Source: Eledone cirrhosa (taxonomy: Eukaryota). From it: a stretch of 64,000 nt of DNA. Position numbers and translations under genes: made by a program. The stretch is from assembly GCA_964016885.1 (NCBI GenBank), contig OZ024740.1:204228001-204292000 (forward strand), in the 5' to 3' direction. Within the stretch, counting starts at the first letter, position 1; each line of letters begins with the position of its first letter. The notes below the pieces were generated by a model, which was not told the origin of the DNA, did not search any database, and saw nothing but the letters and a program-made list of their open reading frames with translations. Below are positions 7,724-62,879 of the stretch, piece after piece.

Positions 7724-7749
7724 GTGATAAAAATTTCCTTCATAATAAT

Positions 7750-7965
7750 AGTTTCTGACATAGGCACAAGGCCAGCAATTTTGAGGGAGGGCCACGTCGA
7801 TTCAATCAACACCAGTACTTCACTGGTACTTTATTTTATTGATCTCGAAAGGGTGAAAGGTAAAGCTGACCTCAGCGGGATTTGAACTCAGAAGGTAAAG
7901 AGTCGTAAGCAAATACTAGGAAGCATTTTGTCCGATGCTCTAACGATTCCGCCAATCCATCACCT
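7750..7965 (-). mobile_element. tRNA-derived SINE, major family (other copies near 9990-10180, 19390-19510, 20640-20760, 33266-33480, 60550-60760)
   Basis: Shared ctgagttcaaatcccgccgagg...gcctttcatcc...ggtcgataaaataaagtaccag...ggccttgtgcc core with (TTA)n tail. Confidence 0.85.
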
Positions 7966-8153
7966 TCCTTTCCTTCATAATAACACACTCAAGTTGTAAG
8001 CTATATAATCACCCATAAATGATGTGGATGCAAAATATAAAAACGTTTATCTAAACATATGCAGAGTTCAAATCCCGCCGTCACCAACTTTGCTTTTGAT
8101 ACTTTTGGGGTCGAAAATTAAAGTAACAGTCAAGTACAGAGGTCAATTCTTCG

Positions 8154-8631: not shown

Positions 8632-9233
8632 TTGGAGCTCTGAAATAGCAATATATATATATGGATGTATATATAATGTATTTTGCAATACACTTTATGC
8701 TTAATTAAAAGCATTTTGAAGACCGTAAGCTATTGTTTTAAAGTAGTGACAAATTCACTCACTTTAATCTCAGCAAACAGGGGAGATAAGCCGACAAGAC
8801 TTGTTTCGCTTTGGTTGAAGCTTATCAAGGCCAACTACCCCACCCGTCTACTGAGATCATTGATGTTATATTCTTATAGAAATCTAGTAAATAATCAGGA
8901 GCTGATTATGCAGAGCGGTTGTTGGTCAGGCAGAAATTAAAAATTAGAATTGGAGCTCTGAAATAGCAATGACCAACAACCGCTCTGCATAATCAGCTCC
9001 TGATTATTTACTAGATTTCTATAAGAATATAACATCAATGATCTCAGTAGACGGGTGGGGTAGTTGGCCTTGATAAGCTTCAACCAAAGCGAAACAAGTC
9101 TTGTCGGCTTATCTCCCCTGTTTGCTGAGATCAAAGTGAGTGAATTTGTCACTACTTTAAAACAATAGCTTACGGTCTTCAAAATGCTTTTAATTAAGCA
9201 TAAAGTGTATTGCAAAATACATTATATATACAT

Positions 9234-9245
<12 letters not shown>
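8624..9245. mobile_element. Fold-back non-autonomous element in (TA)n: ~270-bp inverted arms with a degenerate hammerhead-like motif
   Basis: Arms ~8655-8928 and 8970-9245 (one mismatch seen). The spacer repeats the terminal attagaattggagctctgaaatagcaat. Motif ggcc-ttgataa-gctt(caacca)aagc-GAAA-caagtcttg-TC-ggct at 9065-9110. Related fragment at 34940-35025. Confidence 0.75.
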
Positions 9246-9271
<26 letters not shown>

Positions 9272-12005: not shown

Positions 12006-12733
12006 TGTGTGTGTGTGAAAATGATAAAGATTTGAAAAAGCACCTAATGTGTGTTTATATGTCACGTGTACTTTACACGTGACATATAAACACACATTAG
12101 GTGCTTTTTCACATCGAAAAACAATTTTTTTACATAAAAAAGAATAATTTTTGTACTATTGTACTTGACCAGTTTCGCTTAAAACAGCTTTTCAAAAGCT
12201 TTTCCATTTGTAATGTTATTGTCGCTTATGTTTTTGTTAAAACAAGGGACGCAACTGGTTGTATCTTTCACCCTTATGTCGAGGAAAACAAACACAGTTC
12301 TTGACAGGGGACGTAATTCTGGTCTAATTGGCTATTAAAGGTTATGTATGCAATTCGTTCAGCTTTGGCTTAAAATTTTCTATAAAAATTTGTTCTTTCC
12401 CATTGCGTTTTCCTCTGAGGTTGACTGACAACATTGGTAGAATAGGAAGTCATTGAAATTTGGTAATGCTCGCCCTCCATATTCCTCTATATATTGGCTC
12501 TACATAAGTGGGGTCTTCCTTGTGTATGGATTTCTAATTTGTTATCGGTGAACTGTCATTCTTTCACGTAGTGTTAAGTCTGTTTGGCCAATGTAGTGTT
12601 CATGGTAACACGTAACATTTATATATAATAAATAAAAACACATTAGGTGCTTTTTTCAAATCTGTATCATTTTTATGTATATTTTTTGACATGATTTGTA
12701 TAGAAATCATTAATCGTCCAACATTTTGATTTT

Positions 12734-19235: not shown

Positions 19236-19559
19236 TCAAAACGTGTTTTCGCCCTCTCAGTTATTCACATTTCAATAACAAAAACATTTAAAATGGTTTT
19301 CTCTCTTTAGTCAATTCAATAATATTATTGAATGTATCAGTTCTATTTCAATTTAAAGATATTTTTATATATTTTTTAAATGTGAACTTAATAATTGTTT
19401 CTACTTTTGGCACAAGGCCAGCAATTACCCAGTGTATTACTGGTACTTTATTTTATCGACCCCATAAGGATGAAAGGCAAGGTTAACCTCGGCGGGATTT
19501 GAACTCATTAATAATAATAATATTCCACGCTACTCGGAATTATTCAGATAATTCATATA

Positions 19560-23745: not shown

Positions 23746-24249
23746 TATAATATCAAATTAATTATGTTTGAATTGATGGAGTCATAGGGTACAGTAGTGA
23801 CAAATGGCGAGTTTGGGGCATTTTAAACCCATAGAAGCACATCCTCCCTCCTGTACACAGCCAATTTCTTCCTGTGAAGGAGAGAGTGGTGAAGAGGAAG
23901 TGAGGAAGGGATATAGAATGAGCATCAACTCCCAGCACTGGACACGTACATTTTTATCGCTTCCAAATGATGAAAGGCAAAATAGACCTTGGTGGGTTTT
24001 GAATTCAAATTGCTGAGAGCCAGAAGGAATATCGCAAAAATCATTTTATCCGACGTGCTAACAACTCTGCCGATCGACGGCAATGTTGGATTAGTACTTT
24101 ATCTATCGACTCTGAAACAGCGACACGCAAAACTGACTTCGGTGGTATTTGAACTTAGAGGGTAGTGTGTCGGAACAAATACGACTCTACCAATTAGCCG
24201 TCTTTATACAATCACGATTATATAAATGTGATTTTTATATTAATTTCAG

Positions 24250-24416
24250 GTTGGGAAATAAACTGAATCAATTTATGCCAATGGATTCAACAAGAGCTTG
24301 GCTTCGGAATGTACAGTGTTCAGGAAGAGAATCTTACCTCGATGAATGTAGCCATTCTGATTGGAATCACCAAACTTGTACAAGTGGAAAGCATGTCAAA
24401 CTAATTTGCTTCAAAA
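24250..24416 (+). CDS. SRCR exon, second half of domain 3
   Basis: ttcag|G...A|gtaaa; LGNKLNQFMPMDSTRAWLRNVQCSGRESYLDECSHSDWNHQTCTSGKHVKLICFK. Confidence 0.92.
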
Positions 24417-24624
24417 GTAAATAATTTTATCACCATAGTGTATGGAAGATTAGACTAACAGCTTTTATTGTTCTATTACAGTTTAGGAATCAGCGTATAA
24501 AACCTAAATTTCTGTATTATGATTAAGAATGGTTTTGTGAAGTGGAGCGGAAAGAAATCACAAGTAAATGAGATATGAGATATTTAATATATTCTCCAGA
24601 GAAGGTACATCACTCTCTCTCTCC

Positions 24625-24675: not shown

Positions 24676-24761
<86 letters not shown>

Positions 24762-24882
24762 GGAGGTGAGTTTTATTGTAGCACAATAAAGCAATGCAAA
24801 TATCGGATAAGTAACACTCCACAGTTTATAGGACTGGAGTATAAATAATATAAGATCAAAAGATGGTTAAAAGAGTTCCAAG

Positions 24883-24953
24883 TATTTTATTATGCGTATT
24901 TCAAAAGCAAGTATCATCATGGGATGATATTTGCGTTCTCATCAGATAAAATA
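24883..24953 (-). ncRNA. Type I hammerhead ribozyme
   Basis: tattttat-CTGATGA-stem II (gcaa.tatcatc/gatgata.ttgc)-GAAA-tacgca-TA-ataaaata. Confidence 0.82.
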
Positions 24954-25919
24954 GGGAAACATGATATGAAGCTTAAAAAACACTTGTGAGCAGTGAAGTT
25001 TTAAATCAACATATGAAAAATAAAGTAAGATGGATTTATGAGATTGGGAAAAAAAGGAGGGGGTAGGAGATGGTAAGAAAGAGGAAGAAAGAAAATAAAT
25101 GAAGTGGGAGGATTATAGGAAGGAAGGATGAGAGAGGAGGAGAAATGAGTGATAGAGAGAGAGAAAACATTGTTTCACAGAGAGAAATTAAAAAACCGTT
25201 GGAAGATAATAGATAATTTAAAAAGATTTTGAAATTAAAAGTTAATGAGGTTATGGATGTTGATGTTTATGATTAAAGAAAAGGAATTAAGAATAGTATT
25301 AAAGGTTTATATATTGAAGGGTTTAATAATATGTGCGAAAAAAAGAATTTATTAATATGTATTATTAGAATAAAAATATTAATGATATTAAGGATATAAT
25401 GTGAAAGAAGGAGAAGAATAAATGAATTATGAACTTAGAGGAATTAGTTAGGGTTTAAGTTTGTTTTTATGTATTGTAATATGTAAAAGTAAATAATAGG
25501 TTTAAAACGAGCGCGGAAGGAGAGAAGAAAAAAGAAAATTTAAGGAAGAAAAAATATCTAACGTCAAAAGGTATATATGTTTACAAAAATTTCTAATGGT
25601 AATATTATTATGTATTAAAAAAATATAGTTTCTATTGCCAAATGGAAAAATGGAAAAATGGAAAATGCTGTAGTGAGTAATAATATGAATTGAGAAGTAA
25701 TTGGGAAGTAAAGGTTACAGATTAAAGATTAGAAATTAAAAAGAAAAAAGGGAAGAAAAGAAAAGGATAAAAGAAGAGAGATAGTGGACCTCTAACGATA
25801 TAGAATGAATAAATTGTATAATATAATATAGTGAAATAAGGTAGAAAGATGGGTATATTTGTAATAGATATAAAAGCCTTTGAAAAAAAAAGATTTTAGA
25901 CTAAATACGTATTGAGATA

Positions 25920-26795
25920 TTAGCTGTATACTTTATGGAAAGTTCTAAGGGATTTATGCAAGCAGAGCGAGAATAAATCCGTACGTCTATTTATTATGGA
26001 ATTAAAATTAGATATAATGGTAAATTTCTCAGCTAGGCAGAGATTACATGTTCTGGATAGGGAAGAATTCCGGTAGGGAAAGGCGTTGCAAACCTCCCTC
26101 CAAGAGATGTTATAGTTAATATTTTTGGCTTTTAAGGACCATATGAGTTCCGTGAGTGCCGTGTTAGTTCTTTTGAGTTGGTATTTAAAAGACGATTTGT
26201 GATTATAAAATCTTGCTTTAAAGGAAGTGGAAGTGGAACCAAAATAGGTAAAAAAATTAGTACCAGTTATAACCTTACATTCATACACTAAGTTTTTGTC
26301 AAGACATTGGTTATTAAGAGGACATTTAGATCTAACAGGGCAATTACAATTACGATTAGAGAAATTAACAGAGTTATTAACAAGTGACCTAGTATTATTT
26401 GTGGAAGGAATTGGATTGGAGAAGTTATTTACGATAGGAACTATAGTTTCCTGGTTTAGATTGGTATTATGAACATTCAACGAAGTTACGTTTGACGTCG
26501 TATTTAAATTTACTGAATCTATCCTAGAATTAATGTTGACGTCGGGTATACTACTGCTATTATTATGACGCTCAGTGTTGGAAGGATGTAATTTATTATT
26601 TAATATTTTATTATTGTGTTTAGAGATAATGTTAGAGCTGTTGGAAGTGGTGGAATAAGAGAATTTGATTGTATGTTTGTTAAAGATTTTACTATAGATA
26701 TGCGAGGGAGGGAAGCATTTATCTAAGGCCCTAAAGAATAGTTTAGGAATATTATTAGTGATAGATAAAGAAAAAGGAGCATTATACCAAATCAT
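25920..26795 (-). pseudogene. PLE linker plus GIY-YIG endonuclease (C-terminal part of RT-EN ORF)
   Basis: 291-aa ORF; upstream RT-thumb remnants at 26800-27170 (FLAISLNL, YVNFKSNHP) are frameshifted. Confidence 0.85.
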
Positions 26796-27791
26796 ATTTT
26801 TGTATCTAGGTCTTTTATTTAATTTATTGGAATGATCATAATTAACTGTTTTACTATAAGTCCTTCGATGATTGGTTTCTTTACTGTATTTAATTTTATC
26901 AGGATAACCGGCTTTGGAAAGCGCATTATTATAGTAATTGGCATTGGCGTCGAAGATAGCTTTATTAGAGGATAGATTTGAGGTTCTTTTTCCAATATTA
27001 CTGACTATAGCATTTTTAACGTTAGTGGGTGGTTAGATTTAAAGTTAACATAATTTAGATTTTCATTGTTTTTATAGTAAGGGTAATATAGGCCAGTGTC
27101 AAGATTAAGGGATATAGCCAAGAAATTAGCTAGTTTGACGTTATTATCAAATTCAATTTTAAGGTTATGTTCTTCCCTATCCAGAACATGTAATCTCTGC
27201 CTAGCTGAGAAATTTACCATTATATCTAATTTTAATTCCATAATAAATAGACGTACGGATTTATTCTCGCTCTGCTTGCATAAATCCCTTAGAACTTTCC
27301 ATAAAGTATACAGCTAATATCTCAATACATATTTAGTCTAAAATCTTTTTCTCAAAGGCTTTTATATCTATTACAAATATACCCATCTTTCTACCTTATT
27401 TCACTATATTATATTATACAATTTATTCATTCTATATCGTTAGAGGTCCACTATCTCTCTTCTTTTATCCTTTTCTTTTCTTCCCTTTTTTCTTTTTAAT
27501 TTCTAATCTTTAATCTGTAACTTTTACTTCCCAATTACTTCTCAATTCATATTATTACTCACTACAGCATTTTCCCTTTTTCCATTTTTCCATTTGGCTA
27601 TAGAAACTATATTTTTTAATACATAATAATATTACCATTAGAAATTTTTGTAAACATATATACCTTTTGACGTTAGATATTTTTTCTTCCTTAAATTTTC
27701 TTTTTTCTTCTCTCCTTCCGCGCTCGTTTTAAACCTATTATTTACTTTTACATATTACAATACATAAAAACAAACTTATATCATGTTTCCC

Positions 27792-27862
27792 TATTTTATC
27801 TGATGAGAACGCAAATATCATCCCATGATGATACTTGCTTTTGAAATGCGCATAATAAAATA
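27792..27862 (+). ncRNA. Type I hammerhead ribozyme with palindromic stem III
   Basis: tattttat-CTGATGA-long stem II-GAAA-tgcgca-TA-ataaaata; 8-bp stem I. Confidence 0.88.
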
Positions 27863-27892
27863 CTTGGAACTCTTTTAACCATCTTTTGATCT

Positions 27893-27993
<101 letters not shown>

Positions 27994-29730: not shown

Positions 29731-32700
29731 ATGTCGAACCTAAACAGTTCGAATAACGGTGAAATGGAGACTAGAATGTCATGTGACAGACTCTCACCCA
29801 ACAGGTGCTCCCTGGCTCAGCAGCAGGGACCTGGCTGTCAACCAAATACTGCTGGTGTCGGAGGAAGAAGAAGAAGGAAAGGGACCAGAACCAACTGGAC
29901 GAAAGAATTGAATAGAACTGTTATGCAATGTTACCTGAAGAGTAACCCCAAGGAGAAAGGCTATAGGAAACGGATGCATAACATCTGGAACGAGATTTGT
30001 CTATTTAAATTAGATGAACAAAAATTGGCCGGGCAGGCTCGGGTAATAAGAACTAATGGGTGGATAAGCGAGCTGGAACTGGAGGAACTGAGCAGAGAGA
30101 TTAGCTTAGAGATGGAGAGTGGAGTATGCCAGGCAAACGAGCCAGTGGGAAATGAAGGTGAAGAGGTCTAGAGAACGGAGGAACCACCCGAAGCAGACAA
30201 TGATCTGAATGCTGAGATAAATAATACCTGGAACAGAGATACGGCCACTGAGGAGATGAATGCTGACGGGCTAGGACAAGATTTGGTTGATATCCTAAAC
30301 TTAGTGGTAGATGAATTGAACAATGATAGTGGGAGACCTATGAACCTAAGATTTGTAGACAGGAAAAAGTTAAAAGAAACAACAGCTAAGGTAAACAAAG
30401 TCATCCCATACCTTGAGGCGAGGAGCCTTCACCAGTGCAACAATATCCTCAAAGCAACAGCAAATACGGTGAGGAAACTACTTGGTATAAAAGCCAGAGG
30501 AAACAACAGACAAGAAAGAGCAGAGCCTTGGTGGAAGAAACGACTGAGTGGTCAAATCAGGGAAATGAGAAATGACATTGGAAAGCTTGAGTCCCTACTG
30601 AATGGGACACTAAAAAACATAGACACTAAAAATAGACTGGAAATAAAGTACAAAACTAGGAGGAAAAAGCTAAATATTATCATAAAGGAACTGAAGCAAC
30701 GCATTGTAGCAAAGAGTGCAAAAATCAGGCGATACGAGAACAGAGTCAGTCAGTATAGACAGAACCGCATGTTCGACAACAACCAGAAGATGCTGTTTGG
30801 ACAGCTTGGAGGGAAAGAAAGAGGCAACGACTTTATCCCTGAGGCGGAACAAACTAAAACATTCTGGAGAGGAATATGGGAGCAGGATGTTAAACATAAT
30901 GACCAGGCAGTGTGGATTGAGACAGTACAGAAGGAGATTGGTGAACAGGCACACCAACAAATTGATTTGAGTATCACAGTTGAAACTCTTAAGGGACAGG
31001 CCAAAAAACTAACCAACTGGAAATCACCAGGCCCAGATGGTGTGCAGGGCTATTGGATTAAAAATATAACATCCCTCCACCCGAAACTGACAACCATGTT
31101 CAATGACTGCTTGATGCCAGGTGAGGTACCAGAGTGGTTGACAAAAGGTACCACAGTTCTGATAATGAAAGACCGAATCAAGGGTAATGATGTTACCAAC
31201 TATAGACCTATCACATATCTGTCCGTAATGTGGAAACTGTTGACAAGCATTATGTCTGAGGAAATCTACCATCACCTCCACACAAACAACTTGTTACCGG
31301 ACGAACAGAAAGGATGCCGAAAGAAGTCACGTGGTACAAAGGACCAATTACTTATTGAGAAGATGGTAATGAGGAATTGCAAGAGGAAACACACTGGTCT
31401 TGCCATGGGATGGATAGACTACAAAAAGGCATTTGACATGGTGCCTCATTCTTGGATCACCAAAAGCCTGGAGATCTTCAAGGTGGCAGATAACATCAGA
31501 CAGTTGTTGGGCAAAAGTATGAAGTCCTGGGAAACAGAGTTAACATCAACTGGAGAATCCTTGGGAAGCGTGAAGATCAAGAGAGGTATCTTCCTGGGAG
31601 ATAGTCTGTCCCCTCTGTTGTTTGTCCTTGCCCTGATGCCCCTGACCAGTGTACTGCGAAAAGTGAGAGCAGGATACAGGTTGGGAAAGGGAGGGCTTAC
31701 CATCAATCACCTCCTCTTCATGGACGATCTTAAGTTCTTCGGGAAGAGTGAGAAGGAGTTGGATGTGCTTGTTGACACTGTCCGTATTTTCAGCAATGAT
31801 ATATGTATTCAATTTGGTATTAGTAAGTGTGGAGTCATTGTGATGAAGAAGGGTAAGTTGAGCAGAAGTAACGGAATCCAGGTACCAACAGGTGAGATGA
31901 TAAAGGAAATTGACTCTGAAGAAGGATACAAGTATTTGGGCGTTCTGGAGGCTGATGACATCAAGAACAAAAAAATGAAGGAATTGATAAGAACTGAATA
32001 CATTCGGAGAATAAGGAGCGTATTAAATCACATCTGAACAGTAGGAATGCCATAAGTGCAGTAAATTCCCGAGCTGTGTCTATTATTAGGTACAGTGCGG
32101 GAATTCTGAGATGGAATTTTGCTGAACAAAAAGAAATGGATAGGAAGACTAGGAAGCTATTGACTATCTACAACATGTTCCACAAGAGGAGTGATGTCGA
32201 TAGACTCTACTTAAGGAGATCTGAAGGTGAAAGAGGTCTTATCAGCATAGAGGACTGTGTTCAGATGGAGAAAAACAACCTACACAAATACGTGACTGGT
32301 AGTAAGGAGCCAATACTCAGAACTGTACTGAAGGAGGGGACAATAGGCCAGGGGATGTCCAAGGAGGAAATAACATCAAGGATAAAGAGCAGCCTTCAGG
32401 AAAAATCCCTTCATAGTACCTTCTTTGAGAAAACTAAATTTAGAGATCCACAGACATGGAACTGGTTGAAAAGAGGAGACCTTAAAAAGGCTACAGAAGG
32501 AATGTTAATGGCTGCGCAGGAGCAGGCCCTCAAAACGAAATGGTTGAAACACCATATTTACAAGGAGGAGGCTAGCCCACTGTGCAGGATCTGTGGAGAG
32601 AGAGAGGAGACTGTGGCTCACATTGTATCCGAGTGTAAACACCTAGCCCAGACTCACTATAAGGGCTGGAGACATGATGTGATGGGCAGGGTGATCCACT

Positions 32701-33265
32701 GGCACCTATGCAAAGTAAACAATTTACCACATTCTGAGAAATGGTATGAGCATAAGCCAGAGGCTGTGATAGAAAACGATCAGGTGAAGGTGCTGTGGGA
32801 TTTTAGGATACAGACGGACAAGAAACTGGAACACAATAGACCTGACCTGGTGGTTGTGGACAAAGAAAAAAGATCGTGCCTGATTGTGGATGTGGCCTGC
32901 CCATTCGACACGAGAGTGCAAGAGAAGGAGAAGGAGAAAATTAACCGATACCAGGACTTAAAGTGGGAGGTAAAGAGGATTTGGAACGGCCATGAAGTCA
33001 AAGTGATCCCGATTGTCATAGACGCACTAGGGACTATCTCAAAAAGTTTCCAGGGATGGTTAAAGAAAATTGGCCCCTTCACGCTTTTTGGAACGCTTCA
33101 AAAGGCATGCTTGCTTGGAACAGCAAGAACCCTCCGATACGTCCTGAATATCTGAGGCTGCAGGTAGTGGCTTGATATTCATTCCAACGGACTTTCCAGT
33201 TAACTAACATCAATGACTGAGACTCAAAGAACAATAATAATAATAATAATGATAATAATAATAAT
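29731..33265 (+). mobile_element. Near full-length Dong/R4-clade non-LTR retrotransposon (RT, CCHC, restriction-like endonuclease)
   Basis: One ORF broken by an in-frame TAG at 30169 and a frameshift near 32030. Motifs KSPGPDG, DYKKAFD, LLFMDD, CRIC...H...C, HNRPDLVV, VDVACP. (TAA)n 3' tail. Confidence 0.92.
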
Positions 33266-33821
33266 GGTTTCTTATATAGGCACAAGGCCAGCAATTTTGG
33301 GGGAGGGGAAAGTCGATTAAATCGGCTCCAGTACGTGACTGGTACTTTATTTTATCGACCTCGTAAGGATGAAAGGCAAAGTTAACCTCGGCGGGATTTG
33401 AACTCAGAATGGAAAGGGCCGTAACTTTATGCGTCAAAGCATGGCGTCCGACCCTCTACCGATACTTCCAATCCAATAATAATAACTATGGACGAGGTGA
33501 TAAATTTTCATTAATTTTGTTCAGGTGTAACGCACGTTTCGCGATTGATCATCTCAAGGTTCGATCTCTATCGATCAGGTCCGACTCTGGAATGAAAAGC
33601 TCATCAGACCTCTGTTATCTTAATAATATTACATTCTCGTTAGTACATACTGGAGACTATGTATCGAGTGCCCACTTTAGTGAACCAACAATAACCTGAC
33701 GTTATAATCCCTAAACTATGTCTATGTATATATATATATATAATCTACCAAATCATAATATTATAAAATTAAATCAAATTGTTTAGAACTACAAGTGAAG
33801 TCATTCTTTTCCTATTTTTAA

Positions 33822-33894: not shown

Positions 33895-34692
33895 AATTTT
33901 AGTACAGCATTAACGAAGCTTTAGGCTGCGGCTAAGCTAACGAATACAAATTCGGTATGTTGCTTTAGCACTCGATAGAGAATAATACCCCAGAGTAATA
34001 ACAATACGTTTAGACAGCTTTGCAAATCAAATATAGCGATCGGCAGTCCAGCCGCATTGCCATAGCAACGAAAATGGTTGGACTCAGGAAAAGATTTTAG
34101 ACTGACCTGGACCATCGCGCGGAGACCGAATGCAATATATAATGCATATCGTATAGCATACGATATACATCACATACAACATACAACATCCACGTTAGGT
34201 TTCTGTAAATCCGAGATCGACTAATTCCGCTTGCAGGGGTCTACAAGTTAATGGCCTTTGACGACAGAACAAAGGATTTACTTCTTCAACAAGTCTTGTG
34301 TTCTTTAGCCTCAGCGGGTGTGTTCTAGCAGTAAATTTCGCTATAGACACGTGGTTTTCTCCAAGGGAGGTAACCCACGTTTTGGCGGTGAATTCGAAAT
34401 TTGTGACAAAGGAATGAAATTCCTTTAGACTAACCGAATTAAGCACTCAACCAGAAGTTATCAAACAAACATAAACAATTAATCAATCAATAGAATTGTC
34501 TAATTAAATTAATCAGTTAATCGTTAATTCTAGGAGTTAAAATACAAATTTTAGTACAGCATTAACGAAGCTTTAGGCTGCGGCTAAGCTAACGAATGCA
34601 AATTCGGAATGTAGCTTTAGCACTCGATAGAGAATAATACCCCAGTGTAATAACAATATGTTTAGACAGCTTTTCAAATCAAATATAGCGAT
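33891..34692. mobile_element. Non-coding element with 150-bp terminal direct repeats (652-nt period) in (TA)n
   Basis: 33891-34040 matches 34543-34692 with few mismatches; (TA)n on both sides; GAGTGCT motif on the minus strand. Confidence 0.7.
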
Positions 34693-34708
34693 ATATATAT
34701 ATATATAT

Positions 34709-34906
34709 GAAAAAGTATGACCCCGACGGCAGAGCTCAAGCCGTTTCGACGGCTATTTCTGGACTGAAATACCAGTCCAGAAATAGCAGTCCAGAATGAG
34801 CTCTGCCTTCGAGGTCATACTTTTTCCTATTTCCCACTCTACTACCCTAAGTATTGAGTACTCTGGTGCGTTATGGTCCATCTGGTTCCTTACCACAATT
34901 CCTTTG

Positions 34907-34908
<2 letters not shown>
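34709..34908 (+). mobile_element. Fold-back mini-element containing the 3' half of a hammerhead; second copy at 52109-52289 (-), tail fragment at 52356-52409
   Basis: Hairpin 34709-34826 plus tail with gagtactc; GAAA-cggc...gccg-TC in the arms; (TA)n flanks. Confidence 0.7.
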
Positions 34909-34942
<34 letters not shown>

Positions 34943-39984: not shown

Positions 39985-40370
39985 GGCAGTATCGGTAGAG
40001 AGTCGGACGCCATGCTTTGACACATAGAGTTACGGCCCTTGCTATTCTGAGTTCAAATCCCGCCGAGGTTAACTTTGCCATTCATCCTTACGGGGGTCGA
40101 TAAAATAAAGTACCAGTAATGCACTGGGGTAATTGCTGGCCTTGTGCCAATAGTAGAAACAATTATTTCTAAAGGGCGATGGATTGGCAGTATCGGTAGA
40201 ACGTCAGACGCCATGTTTTGCAGGATAGAGTTTTGGCCCCTTATGTTCTGAGTTCAAATCCCGCCGAGGTTAGCTTTGCCTTTCATCCTTATGGGGGTCG
40301 ATAAAATAAAGTACCAGTAAAGCACTGGGGTAATTGTTGACCTTGTGCCAAAATTAGAAACAATTATTTC
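39985..40370 (+). mobile_element. Two head-to-tail SINE copies
   Basis: ggcagtatcggtaga...agaaacaattatttcta occurs twice. Confidence 0.85.
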
Positions 40371-40399
40371 TATTGAATTGAGAGTACTCTTCTTAATAT

Positions 40400-41139: not shown

Positions 41140-41820
41140 TTGGTAGTATCGATAGAACGTCGGAGAACATGCTTTGCAGCATATTGTTACTGAAGTTAGC
41201 TTTGCTTTTCATCCTTACGGGGTTGATGAAATAAAATACCAGTAATGTACTGGAGTCGATTTTATCGACTTTCCCATCCCCTTCAAATTCCTGGACTTGT
41301 GCCTAAAGTAGAAATCATTATTATTATTACTATTGCTGTTGGAGGGCGGTGGATTGGCAGTATCAGTAGAGGATCGGACGCCATGCTTTGCAGCATAGAG
41401 TTACGGTTCTTTATGATTTGAGTTCAAATCCTGCCGAGGTTAACTTTGCCTTTCATGCTTATGGGGTCGATAAAATAAAGTACCAGTTACGCACTGGGGT
41501 CGATTTAATCGACTTTCCCTTCCCCCCAAATTACTGGTCTTGTGCCTATATAAGAAACCATTATTACTATTGCTGTGACAGGGCGGTGGATTGGCAGTAT
41601 CGGTAGAGGGTCGGACGCCATGCTTTCCAGCATAGTTACGTCCCTTTACGATCTGAGTTCAAATCCCGCCGAGGTTGACTTTGCCTTTCATCCTTACGGG
41701 GTCGATAAAATAAAGTACCAGTAATGCACTGGGTAATTGCTGGCCTTGTGCCTGAAGTAGAAACAATTATTACTATTGCTGTTGTTGTTATTGTTATTAT
41801 TGTTGTTATTATTATTATCT
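41140..41820 (+). mobile_element. Three head-to-tail SINE copies ending at a splice acceptor
   Basis: SINE core at ~41140, 41342 and 41580; the (TTA/TTG)n tail runs to ttcag at 41825. Confidence 0.85.
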
Positions 41821-43312: not shown

Positions 43313-43380
<68 letters not shown>

Positions 43381-43406
43381 CACACAACACACACACACAT
43401 GAGGCT

Positions 43407-43845
43407 TGTTTGCATCATTGCAAACGAATCAAATATTATTATTAGTATTCGAAAAACTCAGATTATTGTATTCAGTCATGTTGAGAGAATTTTTTTTTTT
43501 TTTTATGTGGCAAAGTCGGCCATTTATCGCTCGTATACAGGAAACTGACTGGCCAGTTTGCTGATATGCAAATCTGGCTGATCAGTGGATCTGCTAATAT
43601 GCAGATCTGACTGATCAGCCAGTCTGTTAATATGCAAATCAGGCCGATCAGTTAGTAAGTAAACAGTGAACTGTACTGATGAAGGGTAATACCCAGAAAC
43701 ATTAGTGTCTGCAGTTCTGTTTACATGCCAACACAAGAGCAAGAATGAGGGGCTCATTCTACTGACATGGCTTTAAAAATGTGGCGTGTTTGCATAATTG
43801 CAAACGATTCGAATATTATTATTAATATTCGAAAAACTCAGATTA
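43407..43845 (+). mobile_element. Retrozyme-like 1.15-mer (380-nt period) with an internal hammerhead
   Basis: 59-bp direct repeats 43407-43465 and 43787-43845; flanked by (CA)n and (TA)n. Confidence 0.78.
43661..43722 (+). ncRNA. Type I hammerhead ribozyme, predicted GUC cleavage after 43709
   Basis: aaacagtgaactgta-CTGATGA-a-gggt(aat)accc-a-GAAA-ca(ttag)tg-TC-tgcagttctgttt. Confidence 0.85.
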
Positions 43846-43849
43846 CATT

Positions 43850-43884
<35 letters not shown>

Positions 43885-43887
<3 letters not shown>

Positions 43888-45110
43888 GGAAACTTTAAAG
43901 ACTTTTTATGTACAAACTCTGTCCTCCTCACCCTCCTCACCACTCATGACATAGCTCCTGTAAACAACTCTAGCTAACATCTGCAAAAGTACTTTGATGC
44001 TCTAGCTCAGAGGTTTTCAAAGCGGGCGCTACCACCCTCACCCCCCGGGGGCGTTGAGAAGATCCAGCGGGTGCTGGGGCCTAAAGGGGCGGAGAGAGAT
44101 GATATAATAGTATATTAAATATTAAATGATATATATTACATATAGATATAGTAAAATAGTGAAGGAGCGTGGCTGAGTGATTAGAGAATTAGATTCGCAA
44201 TCGTGCGGTTGTGAGTTCCATTCCCGGATCGAGCGATGCGTTATGTCCTTCGGCAAAAAACTTTATTTCACGTTTCCCCTTCTACCTTAAGGAGCAACGA
44301 TAGAGAGTATCAGCAATCGGAAAGACCAATGGAAACATTGTTTCCTCGGTCCTATTTGACGAAAGTCGATCGTAAAATAATAAAATATATATTTATTTAT
44401 ACATAGTATATATTATATTATTTATTATATATAAATTAACGTTTTTATTTGTTATATATCATTTACAATTTGCGTGTAGGCGGATTTCTTTGGAAATAGG
44501 GTTGGAGGCGCTGAGGGCATTACGTGGCATTGAGGGGGACGATGGCGTGAGGGGGGGGGGGGTGATGGTGGCAATGACCCAAAAAGTTTGAGAACCTCTG
44601 CTCTAGCTAGACATGCAGCAGAAGTGGAACTATTTATAAACGTCTCCAAAACTAAATATATCTCAACAGATAAGAATAACCAGCCTCTACAATATATGAT
44701 AAACCCATCAACACATTTCAGAATTTTTCTATCTAGACCAGAAAATGTTAAGCACTAATGATAGCTCTGTTGTAGTTCATCACAGAATAGGATTAAGCTG
44801 GGTAGCTTTAAAGAAAAATAAGGAAGTTTTAACCTTAAAACGGATCCTACTTTATATCAAATGTAAAATCTACAACTCGTATGCTGTACCGTTCGTCCTT
44901 TATGGTCTTGAATGAGTGAACTCTACCTCATCTACGATTAGTAAAATTGAGATCTTTCCAAACCATATTTCGAGGTTCGTGACAAATAACAGGCTTACTT
45001 GACCATATAAAAATTGAGAATCTGCTAAAACTTGCGAAACTAGTTCCTATAATGTGCATCATCGAAAATAAAGTCCTGAAGCTTTTTGGTCACGCAAAGC
45101 GTTCATAAAA
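43885..45110 (+). mobile_element. Degraded RTE-like LINE fragment split by a hAT insertion
   Basis: LARHAAEV.LFINVSKTKY and YAVPFVLYGLE remnants read through across the TSD. Confidence 0.6.
44008..44600. mobile_element. hAT (Charlie-like) non-autonomous element containing a SINE fragment
   Basis: TIR cagaggttttcaaa / tttgagaacctctg; perfect 8-bp TSD CTCTAGCT at 44000-44007 and 44601-44608. Confidence 0.9.
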
Positions 45111-45164
45111 ATGTTAATAAATACAACATAACGGTTTATCAATGTAACATTTTTTTTTCTTTAG

Positions 45165-45300
45165 AGATCTACAGAATGGTTGGAGGGGGTAATGATGACG
45201 GTCGCCTGGAGGTCAATATTAATGGACAATGGGGTAACCTATGCAGTGGTATATGGAACAACTCTGGTGCAAAGTTAGCCTGCAATGCTCTTGGATTTCA
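45165..45300 (+). CDS. SRCR exon, first half of domain 5
   Basis: ctttag|AG...CA|gtaag; IYRMVGGGNDDGRLEVNINGQWGNLCSGIWNNSGAKLACNALGF. Confidence 0.93.
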
Positions 45301-45628
45301 GTAAGTAATGTCATGTCTTAATACTTTCATAAGAGTTTTACTGTTAATGTAATGCAGTATGGTCAGATTCTTAACAAGTTAACTTTGCAATTATTAGGTT
45401 CCGGATTTGATCCTAATGTGTGACATATTGGGCAATGCTAGAAAGAATTATTATTATGATACACTTCGTATTTACGGTCACAAGAATTACTCAATGCCAT
45501 AGTAGAAATTAATATATTCTTTATTAAGGCCAAGTTTGAATTTTGTTACTCCAGGGTTCCTCCTGTGTACTCAAAGAGACAAATAATATGCGTACATATA
45601 TATATATATATGTATATATATATACTCG

Positions 45629-45927
<299 letters not shown>

Positions 45928-45967
45928 TTCAAAATATTAACAAAATAGATATTCTTGTGATCAATTA

Positions 45968-46034
45968 TATTTTATTATACATATTTCAGAGGTACTGAGT
46001 TAAGTTCAACAGTACGTCCTCATCAGATAAAATA
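45968..46034 (-). ncRNA. Type I hammerhead ribozyme
   Basis: Reverse complement of the 48180 motif. Confidence 0.8.
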
Positions 46035-48179
46035 AGATGATGCATGACATGCCCTGACATAGTAGATAGTAGATGGTTAAGATTCAGTCATGGTAGTGAT
46101 TAACATATGACAAAACTCAATATTTATACCCTAATATTGAGAACATGAGAAAAATATATAATACAAACAATAGAGAGGGTGCGTGTAATACAGCTTAAAA
46201 AATACATGGCATCAATATAACAGTTAAAAAAATTTTTTTTAAACTACTGAAGAAAGAGGAAGGAAAGAAAAGTATAGAGGAAGAAACAGCTGATGTGATA
46301 ATATATTTAGTAGGTGGCTCGAAAAACAGATGAAAGATGATTAAAGAGAGAGAGAGACAAAGGGGAGTAATTTATGTTCAAGTTTATAGATAATTACCCA
46401 TATATGCAATATATATATCCAAATTTATTTATTTAGTTGGCCGTTAATATTCAAAATATTTAATTGAAGTTATTTCAGAGTAATGAGTAATATTTTAGGT
46501 TTTAAAAGTTAATAGGTATTTGTATTAATATTTTAATTATACTATCAAGTTTAATTTCTAAAATTCAAATTTTATGAAAACAAATTTAAAGCATTTACGA
46601 AACACGAGAAAGAAAATATATAATGCTTGTATACTCTCACGAAGGTAATCTTTACCAAAATTATTTATAATATTGACAACAGTTTATATAATATAGTTTA
46701 TAAAATAAATATAGTTATAATTATTAAAGACTTTATGGTTAAATAGTTTGAATGCCTAAAGGATCAACCGGCCTTATAACTAAACTTAAAGAAGTTTGAA
46801 TTTTTTATTATATATATGTGTTAATCAAAAAATATACAAGGATTTTAATGTCTAAAGACTTAAGTTGATACCTTTCCAATATATATAATATAATACAATA
46901 ATATAATATAGTAAATAAGTTACTGAAAATATTGTTAAAAAATATATATAGTTAAAATATATTGTTAAAAAATATTGTTAAAAAATTAATGTTTTATACC
47001 AATTATTTTCATTTAGTTGATGTATACTATAAACATATAAGTCAAAACTACATGAGTCCTAATGATAGGGGCTAGATACTATAAAGACAAAAAATAAAAA
47101 TAATGAATTTTTTGCGAAACTTAAAAATGCCCAATATTAAAAATATATTATAAATGTAATAGGGTTTTAATATATAGTAGACAAAAGATACGTCTAAAAT
47201 ATTTTAGCTAATGCGATAGAAAGAGGAGCTAAATATTTGAAAAAGCCGAAGGTAATCTAAATTTAATTAAAATAAATTAAATTAAATTAAATTATATTAT
47301 ATTAAGTAAAAATTATTATATAAATTCGAAGACTTATAACAATATAGAGTCATTTGAGTATCTAAATTATTTATAAATGTAACTACGAGTATGTTATTTC
47401 ACTAGATAAACATATTTGTACAACTATATAGAGATATTATTATAGGTATTAATGAAATGGTATACATTTAATAAATAAATAATTATTAGTAATGCTATAA
47501 TTGTAATTTTACCTCCAGTTCAGTGGAGAGAGAGAGACCAATATTTGTCGACTATTATGGTTTGTTATATTTATACCTAGATATATATAAAAAATAAATA
47601 AATGCAAATTTAACTTTCTGAATCCCCAAAACATATTCAAAATGAGTAAAATATGCAAACGCATGAATTATTATAATCGGTTCAATTATAATCGGTAAAT
47701 TTACAAGTTAAATATCCAAATTATATATTTAAAATAGAGACAGATAAATACAGAGCTGAATCAAAATTATAAATATCTAAAAAAAAAAAAAACCTAAGGT
47801 GTGCATATTTATCAAGTAAACAAGTTATCAAAAGAGTATCCTTCATTCTAACATTAATTCTAACATTAATTCTAACATTAATTCTATCATAAATGATTAG
47901 AAGATAAAGTATTATTAAAGTTTTATGACATCAGCTGTTTCTTCCTCTATACTTTTCTTTCCTTCCTCTTTCTTCAGTAGTTTTTTTTAAATTTTAACTG
48001 TTATATTGATGCCATGTATTTTTTAAGCTGTATTACACGCACCCTCTCTATTGTTTGTATTATATATTTTTCTCATATTCTCAATATTAGGGTATAAATA
48101 TTGAGTTTTTTCATATGTTAATCACTACCATGACTGAATCTTAACCATCTACTATGTCAGGGTCTGTCATGCATCATCT

Positions 48180-48246
48180 TATTTTATCTGATGAGGACGT
48201 ACTGTTGAACTTAACTCAGTACCTCTGAAATATGTATAATAAAATA
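48180..48246 (+). ncRNA. Type I hammerhead ribozyme
   Basis: tattttat-CTGATGA-ggacgtactg...cagtacctct-GAAA-tatgta-TA-ataaaata. Confidence 0.82.
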
Positions 48247-48373
48247 TAATTGATCACAAGAATATCTATTTTGTTAATATTTTGAATTAATATTAATAAC
48301 TCTGGAAAACCATTACTGTTGAGTGCTTCCAATCTATTGTAAAACTCATTCTTTGATGTATTCATTTAAATTT

Positions 48374-49824: not shown

Positions 49825-50460
<636 letters not shown>

Positions 50461-50477
50461 CACCGGCCGATTATTTT

Positions 50478-51556
50478 CAACTAAAAAATTTTCGGGTTTT
50501 CGCAGTTATCTCCCTTACACTTCTCGCACGCATTCTAGTATTGCCTGTGTGAAGTGACCGTGTTTCTGCGCCTGCGCGTTCGTACCATTGTCCTTCTTGT
50601 TCCAATAACCATGCCCATTCCGAGCTGAGGATCCGCTAAGGTGAAACAATTGTTCTCGGTATGTTGAACTAACTGTTGTGTAACCACTTCTACCTAACTC
50701 GTCCCATGGACTGAGTGCTCTACCACTACAGATATTACCTTCCTGTGTTCTACCACTATATATATATATATATATATTTATAACCGACACAAAGTAAAAC
50801 TAGGATACTCCTGTGCTAAGAACATGAAGGCCCACATCACCAACAGCCCTAAGAGCAACACCCCACCAGAGTGCTCTTGCCGTAAGCCCGAAGCTTGTCC
50901 CCTTCAACAGCAATGTAACACACATGCTGTAGTTTATGAAGCTGTGGTCATTTCCAACCGACCAAATCAACCACAGGAGGTCAAATCCTATGTGGGTATG
51001 GCGGAGGGCCGATTTAAGGAACGCTTCCTGAACCACCGGTCGACCTTTAGGTACCCGGACAGACGTTCATCCACGAAACTCGCGAACCACGTATTGTCCC
51101 TCAAGGACGCAAGTATAGACTACTCCATTCAATGGAAAGCCATCACTAAGTCCAAGCCATACGCAAGGGGAAATCTGTCGTGTGGACTATGTATTGATGA
51201 ACGAATAGATATTCTAAAGAGATTATACAATAGCGATTGCCTAAACACGAGAAATGAATTCTTCACATGTTGTCCACACATATTGAAATACCTCTTACGT
51301 AACTAGAAAGCTCCGGATTGAATTACAACAGCATCCTAACTTTCTTATCAACTAGAAACTTTTCGGACTTTCGCAGTTATCTCCCTTACACCTCTCGCAC
51401 GCATTTTAGTATTGCCTGTGTGAAGTGATCGTTTCTACGCATGCGCGTTCGTACGGTTGTCCTTCCTGTTTTGTATAACCATATCCATTACGAGCTAAGG
51501 ATCCGCTAAGGTGAAACAATTGTTCTCGGTATGGTGAACTAACTGTTGTGTAACCA

Positions 51557-51558
<2 letters not shown>
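50478..51558 (+). mobile_element. Second PLE family: solo 3' terminus (50478-50757) and a GIY-YIG-encoding fragment with 3' UTR (~50780-51558)
   Basis: ORF 50824..51306 has CSCRKPEACPL...VVYEA...YVGMAEGRFKERFLNH...CGLC; 50478-50688 is similar to 51348-51558. Confidence 0.85.
50616..50663 (+). ncRNA. Type I hammerhead motif (GUU site); core-mutated copy at 51485-51534
   Basis: ccgag-CTGAGGA-tcc(gctaa)ggt-GAAA-caattg-TT-ctcgg; the second copy has CTAAGGA. Confidence 0.72.
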
Positions 51559-51608
<50 letters not shown>

Positions 51609-51729
51609 GGAGGTGAGTTTTATTGTAGTACAATAAAGCAATGCAGATATCGAATAAGAAGCACTCTACAGTTTGTGGGACTGGAGTATGCATAATATAA
51701 GATCAAAAGATGGTTAAAGGAGTTCCATA

Positions 51730-51800
51730 TATTTTATTATGCGCATTTCAAAAACAAACATCATCAAACAATAATATTTGCGTTTTCATCAGATAAAACA
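51730..51800 (-). ncRNA. Type I hammerhead ribozyme
   Basis: Reverse complement of the 51920 motif. Confidence 0.78.
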
Positions 51801-51919
51801 GGAGAACATGATATGAAGGCTAAAAAAACACTTGTTGATAGTGCAGTTTAAAAACAACATATGTTGTTTTAAAACTGCACTATCAACAAGTGTTTTTTAG
51901 CCTTCATATCATGTTCTCC

Positions 51920-51990
51920 TGTTTTATCTGATGAAAACGCAAATATTATTGTTTGATGATGTTTGTTTTTGAAATGCGCATAATAAAATA
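51920..51990 (+). ncRNA. Type I hammerhead ribozyme
   Basis: tgttttat-CTGATGA-aaacgcaaatattatt...gatgatgtttgttttt-GAAA-tgcgca-TA-ataaaata. Confidence 0.8.
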
Positions 51991-52020
51991 TATGGAACTC
52001 CTTTAACCATCTTTTGATCT

Positions 52021-52110
<90 letters not shown>

Positions 52111-52286
52111 CGAAGGAAATGTGGTAAGGAACCAGGTGGACCATAACGCACCAAAGTACTCAATACTTAGGGTAGTAGAGTGGGTAATAGGAATCAGTAA
52201 GACCCCGACGGCTGAGCTCAAGCCGTTTCGACGGCTATTAGCCGTCGAAACGGCTTGAGCTCAGCCGTCGGGGTCTTACTGGTTCC

Positions 52287-52357
<71 letters not shown>

Positions 52358-52405
52358 TATTGAGTACTCTGGTGCGTCCACTTGGTATCTTATCACACCC
52401 TCTTT

Positions 52406-52471
<66 letters not shown>

Positions 52472-54240: not shown

Positions 54241-54514
54241 AGTATTTTCGTAGAAAACGTAAAGGAAAAAAGAGTGCTCGCTGTATTGTACAGAGCTATC
54301 TAATTACAGAATAAACAACACGGTGTAATTATTTCATTACCGAAAGTTTCGAGATACTAGATCATTCATACAGAAACATTTAGCTCGGTGGTCAGTGAAA
54401 ATAACTATAATTGTTTTCACTGACGAACGAGGTAAATGTTTCTGTAAGAATCATCTAGTTTCTCGAAACTTTCGGTAATGAAATAATTACACTGTGTTGT
54501 TTATTATGTAATTA
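54238..54514. mobile_element. Fold-back mini-element (~107-bp arms) with a degenerate hammerhead (54408-54489, +)
   Basis: Palindrome 54301-54514 centred at 54407/54408; ttttca-CTGACGA-acgag...ctc-GAAA-ctttcgg-TA-atgaaataatta; gagtgctc at 54272. Confidence 0.65.
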
Positions 54515-54539
54515 TATATATATATATTATATATATATA

Positions 54540-60230: not shown

Positions 60231-60934
60231 ATATTCTTAAATTATAGAACCATTACTAGCAGAATCAGTAGAGAGACAGAGTAAAATCATCATGGACATA
60301 AATACTTATAATATGCAGTTTCATCTTTTAAAGATCTACTTTCAAATCCCGCTAACACTCGTCAAATAGTGAAGTCGGTTCTATCAAATATATCGATTCC
60401 CTAAAATGTACTGTTTTGTCGATTTATTGCTTCAAATCATTATTACTAATAAAGTCGTACGTTTTCGGAAAATATTGAACATCCTTCTGTATTTCGACGT
60501 TTTATTCTATCATCTGGAATTTGTTGAATATGTTTCAGTTAAATAAGGGTTTCTGATTTAGGCACATGGCCAACAATTTTATATGGAGGGAGAAAGTCGA
60601 TTAAATCGATCCCAGTGTATTACTGGTACTTTATTTTATCGACCCTGTAGGGATGAAAGGCAAAGCTAACCTCGGCGCGATTTGAACACAGAACGTTAAG
60701 GGCCATAACTCTATGCTGCAAAGCATGTTGTTCAACGCTCTACCGATACTGCTAATCCACATGGCCGATTCAGACAGCTATACGTACATATCTTCTAAAA
60801 TTTGCAGCATTTGACTCTTTTACTCTCTTATTGATTTCAGTCAATAGACTGTGGCCATACTAAGGCACTGCCTTTCGAATCCAGTACTTATTCTTTGAAG
60901 ACTGCTACTTATTTGTCGAACCGCTAATTTACAG

Positions 60935-62182: not shown

Positions 62183-62565
62183 TTGGCAGTATCGGTAGAG
62201 GATCGGACGCCATGCTTTGCAGAATAGAGTTACGGTCCTTTACGGTCTGAGTTCAAATCCCGCCGAGGTTAACTTTGCCTTTCATCCTTACGGTGTCGAT
62301 AAAGTAAAAGTACCAGTCCCGCACTGGGGTCGATTTAATCGACATCCACCTCCCCCCCCCCCAAAAAAAAAAATTGCTGGCAGTATCGGTAGAGGGTCGG
62401 ATGCCATGCTTTGACGCATAGAGTTACGGCCCTTGCCATTCTGAGTTCAAATCCCGCCGAGGTTAACTTTACCTTTCATCATTACGGGGTCGATAAAATA
62501 AAGTACCAGTAATGCACTGATATAATTGCTGGCCTTGTGCCAAAAGTAGAAACAATTATTATTAA
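62183..62565 (+). mobile_element. Two head-to-tail SINE copies
   Basis: Same SINE core as 41342. Confidence 0.85.
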
Positions 62566-62879
62566 AGTATATATAGGCCTTGTGCCTATGTATACTTATT
62601 AAATCATTATTAAAGTATATTTTGAAATACCTTGCAGCATGTTATATTTATACTTGTTTTAAGAAAAAAGCTAGTGTTCAGCAGTTAATATGCAGTGGGT
62701 TGTCTTTTGCAGAGGGAAGAAAACATACGAAGAAATTTTCGTCCAACAACTTTTGTTGGTTTTCTTGAGGGGACGAGTGTCTCAGTCTTCGCACAGCGCT
62801 GATTTCCATTCCAGCCGTACAGCACTCAGCATCAAACCTATCAAATGTATGCCGGACATCACCACGATCGCGAATATAA

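Follow-up and report, generated by a model that had tools for sequence, protein, structure and literature searches.

A greater-than-unit copy of an abundant noncoding hammerhead repeat in Eledone cirrhosa: a likely non-LTR retrozyme, likely mobilized by PLE machinery

In this work, we analyzed a 64,000-nucleotide stretch of the Eledone cirrhosa genome (referred to below as the window), with a focus on an element at positions 43407 to 43845. We conclude with good confidence that this element is a decayed, slightly greater-than-unit copy of a high-copy, ca. 430-nt noncoding hammerhead repeat, which is likely a non-LTR retrozyme and likely mobilized in trans by a Penelope-like element (PLE). The unit is closed and noncoding, its ribozyme fold is conserved, its 3′ ends recur at TA repeats, and arms and tails of the PLE type are present. 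Retrozyme circles are already known elsewhere, and PLEs have been put forward as partners of retrozymes. An initial annotation, made from the sequence alone, had proposed a 380-nt circular-RNA retrozyme. We agree with that reading insofar as it describes a noncoding unit that bears a type I hammerhead and closes head to tail without an ORF; however, neither the 380-nt circle nor free circular permutation is supported by further analysis. The size is wrong for the family, whose unit is ca. 430 nt, and the 3′ ends, rather than being freely permuted, are concentrated at a small number of AU-rich positions that adjoin (TA)n, while depth declines in the 5′ direction. The features on which this account is based are collected in Table 1.

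Table 1. Features of the element, its relatives and the PLE-type fragments (positions in the window)
Feature	Position	Strand	Remarks
PLE-type ORF, 3′ part (C-terminal endonuclease region)	25920..27032	-	between inverted hammerhead-bearing ends
(CA)n microsatellite, 5′ flank	43317..43399	.	
Upstream terminal repeat, the extra 0.15 unit	43399..43465	+	6 nt lost after 43465 versus the family; 43854 A>G; loose ends behind 43857
Unit start	43466..43543	+	T-tract hairpin and short motif common to paralogue H
Three 33-nt quasi-palindromic repeats	43544..43652	+	long hairpin, -61.7 kcal/mol
ATATGCA box in each 33-nt repeat	43564, 43597, 43630		two are full octamers, ATGCAAAT; candidate internal promoter element
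Break point of ca. 48-nt deletion	43649..43653	+	private to this copy; a CAGT microhomology on each side
Canonical type I hammerhead	43660..43723	+	6-bp helix I and distal helix, with a 3-nt bulge opposite U; 3-bp helix III inside a 10-nt self-complementary segment
Post-ribozyme segment	43724..43778	+	small hairpin; motif in common with paralogue H
Downstream terminal repeat/tail	43779..43853	+	two hairpins; probable reverse-transcription starts at ~43791, 43824 and 43852
(TA)n microsatellite	43853..43881	.	presumed target, joined to the 3′ end via TTTAT microhomology
Copy 2, truncated, PLE-type scar	45735..45886	+	flanked by (TG)n and (TAT)n(TA)n
Paralogue H, diverged family, same layout	49928..50473	-	type I hammerhead, core at 50231
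Second PLE-type fragment	50471..51562	+	ORF 50698-51306 between ~220-nt direct repeats

The layout first described for the locus was borne out in most respects. The terminal direct repeat (43407 to 43465 versus 43787 to 43845) is identical at 55 of 59 positions and is in fact longer than claimed, reaching up to 67 nt at 91% identity (from 43399 and 43779) with a spacing of exactly 380 nt. The element does slightly exceed one unit (1.15 units at the locus), it is free of an ORF (the longest wholly internal stop-to-stop frame is 82 aa), and its flanks are microsatellites, namely, (CA)42 and (TA)14. The 380-nt period is exact here but private to this copy. The flanks being two different microsatellites, the site is unlike the 4-bp TSD of a plant LTR retrozyme. 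A single ribozyme is present, and it lies outside the terminal repeats. The GC content of 38% and the unit size (380 nt here, ca. 430 nt in the family) fall within the values given for non-LTR retrozymes (ca. 150 to 450 bp, below 50% GC). The element is strongly self-paired (linear z of -8.8); a predicted circular fold of the unit at 43466 to 43845 has an energy of -132.4 kcal/mol with 69% of positions paired, to which the 33-nt repeats contribute part.

The ribozyme has its CUGAUGA core at 43676 to 43682, GAAA at 43696 to 43699 and a GUC ending at 43709, with the predicted cut at 43709|43710; stem I is long, as annotated (14 bp with a bulge). The earlier description of the motif as well formed holds for its sequence, but an A·A mismatch occupies positions 10.1/11.1 at the base of helix II, and the predicted minimum fold is inactive. 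In that fold (-20.0 kcal/mol, versus -13.8 kcal/mol for the active shape), the core is paired with the helix III segment; the probability of the active fold in the monomer is 7e-6 by nearest-neighbor energies, which leave core contacts unscored. Nor is the minimum-energy fold of two copies the active dimer. The helix III segment is perfectly self-complementary over its 10 nt (duplex energy, -8.8 kcal/mol), and a self-complementary helix III has been described as a trait of hammerheads that cut as dimers (PMC4209133). The same report calls the G10.1-C11.1 pair highly conserved; the axolotl ribozyme HHR_Amex2 is reported to cleave despite a U·U at the base of helix II (PMC7229834). A descriptor for type I motifs found 10 in the 64-kb window; 100 dinucleotide shuffles yielded 0.02 on average, and 0 of the 100 contained a motif as complete as this hammerhead. 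The Rfam hammerhead models gave no match to the element, even at E<=10. Subthreshold matches of the element to miRNA-type hairpins in the Rfam scan were dismissed as chance, as were the two loci that pattern scans returned elsewhere (0, 1, 1 and 0 loci in metagenome, prokaryote-genome and viral collections), both of which match over only 18 to 20 nt.

Four of the 15 sequencing runs listed were aligned to positions 43385 to 43862 at 80% likeness. One of these, X13, carries the same species label as X1, which possibly stems from the source of the window itself; X4 and X5 come from other organisms. No RNA run was among those listed, a result without bearing on whether the family is expressed. The family was represented by 9,315 contigs in X1, 44,599 reads in X13, 2,929 contigs in X4 and 28 contigs in X5, and it is high-copy in at least two organisms. 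Our guess at the copy number is ca. 2 × 10^4, obtained by setting 350 to 390k over a single-locus depth of ca. 15; depth is not copy number, and the figure is an order of magnitude only. Of the 238 substitutions in the tables behind the following statements, 40 were listed; for loose ends, the listing covered 24 of 1,126, and for pieces, 24 of 12,706.

At 43652|43653, other copies have ca. 48 extra nt; loose ends behind 43652 were seen in 47 contigs of X1, 50 of X4 and 6,917 reads of X13, and these ends overlap with the loose ends before 43649 and 43662. Past 43845, the family runs via 43846 to 43857 into the unit start (71 X1 contigs, 1,583 X13 reads and 1 X5 contig). Because the tail thus leads into the unit start, the unit closes head to tail without an ORF, the left terminal repeat is short of 6 nt relative to the family, and the true right end of the element lies at ca. 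43852/3, directly behind which (AT)n follows in 71 contigs of X1 and 1 contig of X5. Since this copy has lost ca. 48 nt and a further 6 nt, the family unit is ca. 430 nt. The initial annotation had asked whether copies always extend into an RT ORF. The pieces listed (24 of 12,706) have a maximum length of ca. 190 nt, with none spanning the stretch, and none of the loose ends listed (24 of 1,126) leads elsewhere than to the noncoding unit start; no such extension was found among either. Nor did a copy with two hammerheads, or a tandem array, turn up among the pieces listed, which counts against the retrozyme reading.

In X1, depth is 42k at 43513 and climbs to 220k at 43593, 390k at the ribozyme and 817k at 43817, a gradient as expected of 5′-truncated copies with common 3′ ends. 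Three things confound it: the divergence of this copy at 43465 to 43512, contig edges and the double counting of the repeat. Depth passes the cut site without a clear step (352k to 391k), and therefore few copies begin there; most continue through it. Among the 40 of 238 substitutions listed, none falls in the core or the octamers, and the family letters at 43654 and 43656 lengthen stem I. The majority letter differs from this copy at ca. 20 listed positions (4 to 5%), in line with the 7% by which the copy's own two repeats differ, so the repeats were probably identical at insertion. This is compatible with a circular and a tandem template alike. Two features of X13 deserve separate mention. 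Read starts at 43724/43727 were ruled out as ribozyme cuts, as they lie 14 nt off the cut site at a CATG site in a restriction-based DNA library. Joints reaching back 245 nt (43835 to 43591, 119 reads) and 262 nt (43766 to 43505, 128 reads), with one start each, may reflect single loci that hold shorter head-to-tail variants or underwent template jumps.

A second, diverged family in the window (paralogue H) is built in the same manner. It is a 533-nt 1.27-mer (49928 to 50460, minus strand) with a period of 421 nt and a 113-nt repeat with 3 differences, and its 5′ end lies next to that of the second PLE-type fragment. Alignment of H to the unit beat 300 of 300 shuffles, as did alignments of both segments flanking the ribozyme. 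As controls, 16 comparisons were made with other families or ends of the window, and 0 of the 16 stood out. Both ribozymes have a helix I of 6 bp and a 3-nt bulge that faces a U, and in both the base of helix II is mismatched (A·A in the element and U·U in H). In this copy versus H, all 15 of 15 ribozyme pairs are kept, 7 of them by two-sided and 1 by one-sided change, in a count for which the register was set by hand and the first 3′ hairpin was left out. Because compensatory change has kept the helices between two diverged families, the fold matters at some step; judged from these sequences, it appears to be under selection. H is younger: its 113-nt repeats are near identical. Its loop II is closer to the textbook form, and it is a better candidate for cleavage than the element itself.

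In copy 2, an inverted arm (45735 to 45777) has a 3′ end equivalent to 43791, and a forward arm (45776 to 45886) starts at the equivalent of 43712 and ends at that of ca. 43824; this leaves a 33-nt tail on one end only, and both arms face out into TA-containing repeats. The forward-arm start lies 2 nt after the cut site, but this is a single case, and 0 of 3 inverted hammerhead insertions elsewhere in the window (8651-9247, 51692-52028 and 54297-54518) turn at their own cut sites. H ends at TTTAT|(TA)n on its 3′ side, and on its 5′ side carries a ca. 15-nt inverted piece of itself whose 3′ end lies ca. 25 nt further on, i.e., a ca. 25-nt tail. The element's own copy is without inverted arm and tail; the scar is found in copy 2 and in H. 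TA-containing repeats adjoin 4 of 4 3′ ends examined. As H ends at a different register of the unit from the element, start sites vary among a few AU-rich points, and permutation is limited in this sense. An inverted truncated arm with a tail on one end is the layout of PLEs (Craig et al. 2021), and the PLE tail has been attributed to the use of two internal start sites by the RT once AT-rich DNA has been nicked (PMC11167929). Copy 2 also has one (TA)n tract in common with another hammerhead-bearing inverted insertion (45919-48295).

PLE-type sequence is present in the window itself. Both ORF fragments (Table 1) match the C-terminal part of three proteins of ca. 700 aa; by features, RT and GIY-YIG families are among the clusters nearest to these proteins. 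A Pfam search gave no direct match, and a PDB search with a PLE-type homologue gave none. We read the fragments as PLEs, and their clade as presumably that with a Neptune-like cysteine linker. They show that a source of RT and EN has been active in this genome. Against a PLE partner stands the finding that no autonomous PLE end among the window families has sequence in common with the element.

Taken together, these results suggest the following sequence of events. A locus with two or more units, or a read-through RNA, would be transcribed, possibly from an internal promoter at the paired octamer-like boxes. The hammerheads, probably paired via the self-complementary helix III, would cut at GUC and yield unit-length RNA, which, as in the retrozymes of coral, mussel and axolotl, may be ligated to a ca. 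430-nt circle. A PLE protein would then nick a TA-containing microsatellite and prime reverse transcription internally, at AU-rich sites 80 to 145 nt downstream of the cut site. The ends and targets of this step are observed; the enzyme, and internal priming by microhomology, are what we infer from them. Most cDNAs would stop early and leave 5′-truncated copies, some with an inverted second arm and tail (copy 2 and H). In the present copy, the cDNA passed both the cut site and the unit junction and reached 1.15 turns. After insertion, ca. 48 nt and 6 nt would have been lost by microhomology deletion, with ca. 4 to 5% drift from the family. Because of its single ribozyme and its decay, this copy is probably a dead end.

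As to the template for the 1.15 turns, we put the chances of a circle at about even; an uncleaved tandem RNA is a plausible second choice and a template jump a rather improbable third. A circle and an uncleaved tandem are indistinguishable from DNA, and a greater-than-unit copy, as the initial annotation had itself allowed, is equally left by internally primed PLE RT on uncleaved tandem RNA (PMC11167929). The strongest rival therefore keeps the family and the PLE machinery and dispenses with the circle: copies would derive from an uncleaved tandem or read-through linear template, with a ribozyme that is weak, protein dependent or incidental to insertion. We consider this a serious possibility, albeit the lesser one. 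That the cut site is read through in most copies and that the core is predicted to be sequestered would be natural under such a scheme, whereas the compensatory changes that keep the helices between two diverged families would not, nor would the start of the copy 2 forward arm 2 nt from the cut site (one case). Moreover, both full-length examples are just over one unit (1.15 and 1.27), a lone single-ribozyme copy could not regenerate the unit, and circles do come from comparable mollusc, coral and amphibian units (PMC7229834). Two reports on related systems weigh against activity: 8 of 9 predicted Xenopus retrozyme dimers were reported to be uncleaved in vitro (Li et al., bioRxiv 10.64898/2026.07.22.740005), and ribozyme cutting was reported to be dispensable for PLE insertion in vitro (PMC11167929).

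It is unlikely that the element is instead a pseudo-LTR end left stranded by an autonomous PLE, with no ORF present at this locus, and not a separate nonautonomous family. The tail of a PLE is the ORF start (PMC11167929), whereas here the tail leads to a noncoding unit start in the data of three organisms, and no ORF-ward loose end occurs among those listed; as these are 24 of 1,126, rare ORF-linked copies could be hidden. The family does show every insertion trait of a PLE, and 24 of 57 Xenopus retrozyme families are reported to be homologous to known elements, with 21 of 22 being PLEs (Li et al.). However, the ribozyme here is canonical (6-bp helix I, bulge and short helix II), as opposed to the long-helix-II, palindromic-loop motifs at 24945 and 27800 on the ORF-bearing fragment. 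The three PLE-type proteins gave no tblastn match inside the element. Finally, a satellite-like or local duplication spread by DNA-level recombination, with the terminal repeat a chance local duplication, is highly improbable: the 33-nt repeats are a local tandem expansion, and Li et al. consider how satellites arise from units of this sort, but the copies are dispersed, with common 3′ ends, truncated 5′ sides, inverted arms and targets in microsatellites, which are marks of retrotransposition, and the same greater-than-unit layout occurs independently in H.

The interpretation that we favor, a non-LTR retrozyme mobilized in trans by a PLE, has clear precedents. Non-LTR retrozymes with circles have been reported from coral, mussel and axolotl, with PLEs as candidate partners (Cervera & de la Pena 2020, PMC7229834), a PLE origin of non-LTR retrozymes has been argued by Li, Clavereau & Pollet (bioRxiv 10.64898/2026.07.22.740005), and greater-than-unit copies from circles have already been proposed (PMC4209133). 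For cephalopods, a squid genome paper counted 235 hammerheads, while a repeat annotation of Octopus vulgaris leaves hammerheads unmentioned in text or supplement. Our literature search, which had most subscription papers and repeat databases outside its reach, found no description of a cephalopod retrozyme or of a retrozyme with a PLE scar.

Like the animal non-LTR retrozymes of PMC7229834 (the 350- to 390-bp repeats of Mytilus galloprovincialis and axolotl HHR_Amex2), the family has a type I hammerhead in a noncoding unit of a few hundred nucleotides, a GC content below 50%, a highly self-paired RNA, a head-to-tail junction and cooccurring PLEs (two fragments in the window); with HHR_Amex2, it also has in common the mismatch at the base of helix II. 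Unlike the published elements, which are defined by tandem arrays, the copies seen here are dispersed and are either 5′ truncated or single-ribozyme 1.15- to 1.27-mers. The paired octamer-like boxes are conserved here, and the published circles are known as RNA, whereas for the present family a circle is a prediction. Li et al. likewise name a PLE as the partner and count solo monomers as likely inactive offspring; however, their active element consists of two consecutive ribozyme units, and the locus here has one. Their case is built on cooccurrence and pseudo-LTR homology, mostly in vertebrates, whereas ours is built on an insertion scar, with no homologous pseudo-LTR found in the window. 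EN+ PLEs (Neptune, Poseidon and Naiad; Craig et al. 2021; PMC11167929) resemble the family in the partial tandem that gives terminal repeats, the inverted truncated arm, the 25- to 33-nt tail on one end, the TA-microsatellite target, the absence of a clear TSD and a hammerhead upstream of the RT start region, but here there is no RT or GIY-YIG ORF, the hammerhead is canonical and not minimal, and the unit is only ca. 430 nt. Newt satellite 2 and the schistosome hammerhead SINE-like repeats are also hammerhead units with an internal promoter (for the present family, a motif-based guess) but form tandem arrays with demonstrated transcripts. Plant LTR retrozymes are noncoding, self-paired as RNA and equipped with terminal direct repeats and a hammerhead; they differ in having type III ribozymes in both LTRs, a PBS, a PPT and 4-bp TSDs, in contrast to the one type I ribozyme outside the repeats here.

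SRCR exons at 24137-24421 and 45080-45301 bracket the element, which is oriented in sense and is probably intronic; we saw no sign of a host function for this decayed locus. An active ribozyme at this position would cut the pre-mRNA. Six plus-strand SRCR half-domain exons within 11381 to 61799 score above the Pfam cutoff, and at least six are present; N- and C-terminal halves alternate in the first four. This is a multi-SRCR gene or gene cluster, with introns filled with repeats. Among these repeats, one PLE-type family occurs twice, at 24716-27920 as inverted ends around the endonuclease-region ORF and at 51563-52049 as a 338-nt palindrome, with hammerheads at 24945(-), 27800(+), 51792(-) and 51928(+); the two plus-strand hammerhead copies flank the SRCR exon at 45080-45301. 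A further, unrelated family is represented by a 600-nt inverted insertion between (TA)n tracts at 8651-9247, with a hammerhead in each arm and an asymmetric center; its arms give weak HH9 matches (8772-8842 and 9056-9126; 24.6 bits). Three more hammerhead-bearing inverted or solo insertions lie in TA repeats (45919-48295, 49617 and 54297-54518). Short palindromic insertions in TA repeats at 34683-34937, 52046-52468 and 12029-12115, in which no hammerhead was detected, are possibly very short PLE-type inverted ends. The window also holds a nearly complete non-LTR retrotransposon ORF in pieces (29731-33155, plus strand; RVT_1, E of 2.6e-23), with what by eye is a C-terminal restriction-like endonuclease region. 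A ca. 200-nt SINE-like repeat occurs at 7742-7968, 19389-19507, 33227-33485, 39985-40372, 41192-41807, 60542-60760 and 62183-62567, several copies being head-to-tail dimers or trimers.

Octamer boxes mark snRNA-type promoters. The ATATGCA box occurs 27 times in the window, and pairs within 40 nt are confined to the element, H (boxes at 50313 and 50285) and one low-complexity repeat. Conservation of the paired boxes in both families hints at an internal promoter. According to a review (PMC7761336), retrozymes seem to be without a promoter and without a motif pointing to the partner element; for newt satellite 2, a Pol II promoter of the snRNA type has been reported (cited in PMC2220036). One speculative extension, which we hold to be rather doubtful, is that the family is a lineage with its own snRNA-type internal promoter, whose ca. 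430-nt circles are primed by a PLE RT at several AU-rich sites through microhomology to (TA)n. If this were true, the dispersed scars would record both cleaved linear monomers (as starts at the cut site) and circles (as 1.1 to 1.3 turns), and would amount to direct genomic evidence for PLE-driven rolling-circle retrotransposition. The mobilizer of animal retrozymes, and whether their template is circular, are still argued from cooccurrence and homology. Here, two related families bear the PLE scar itself together with a conserved promoter-like motif, and their copy numbers allow a census of ends.
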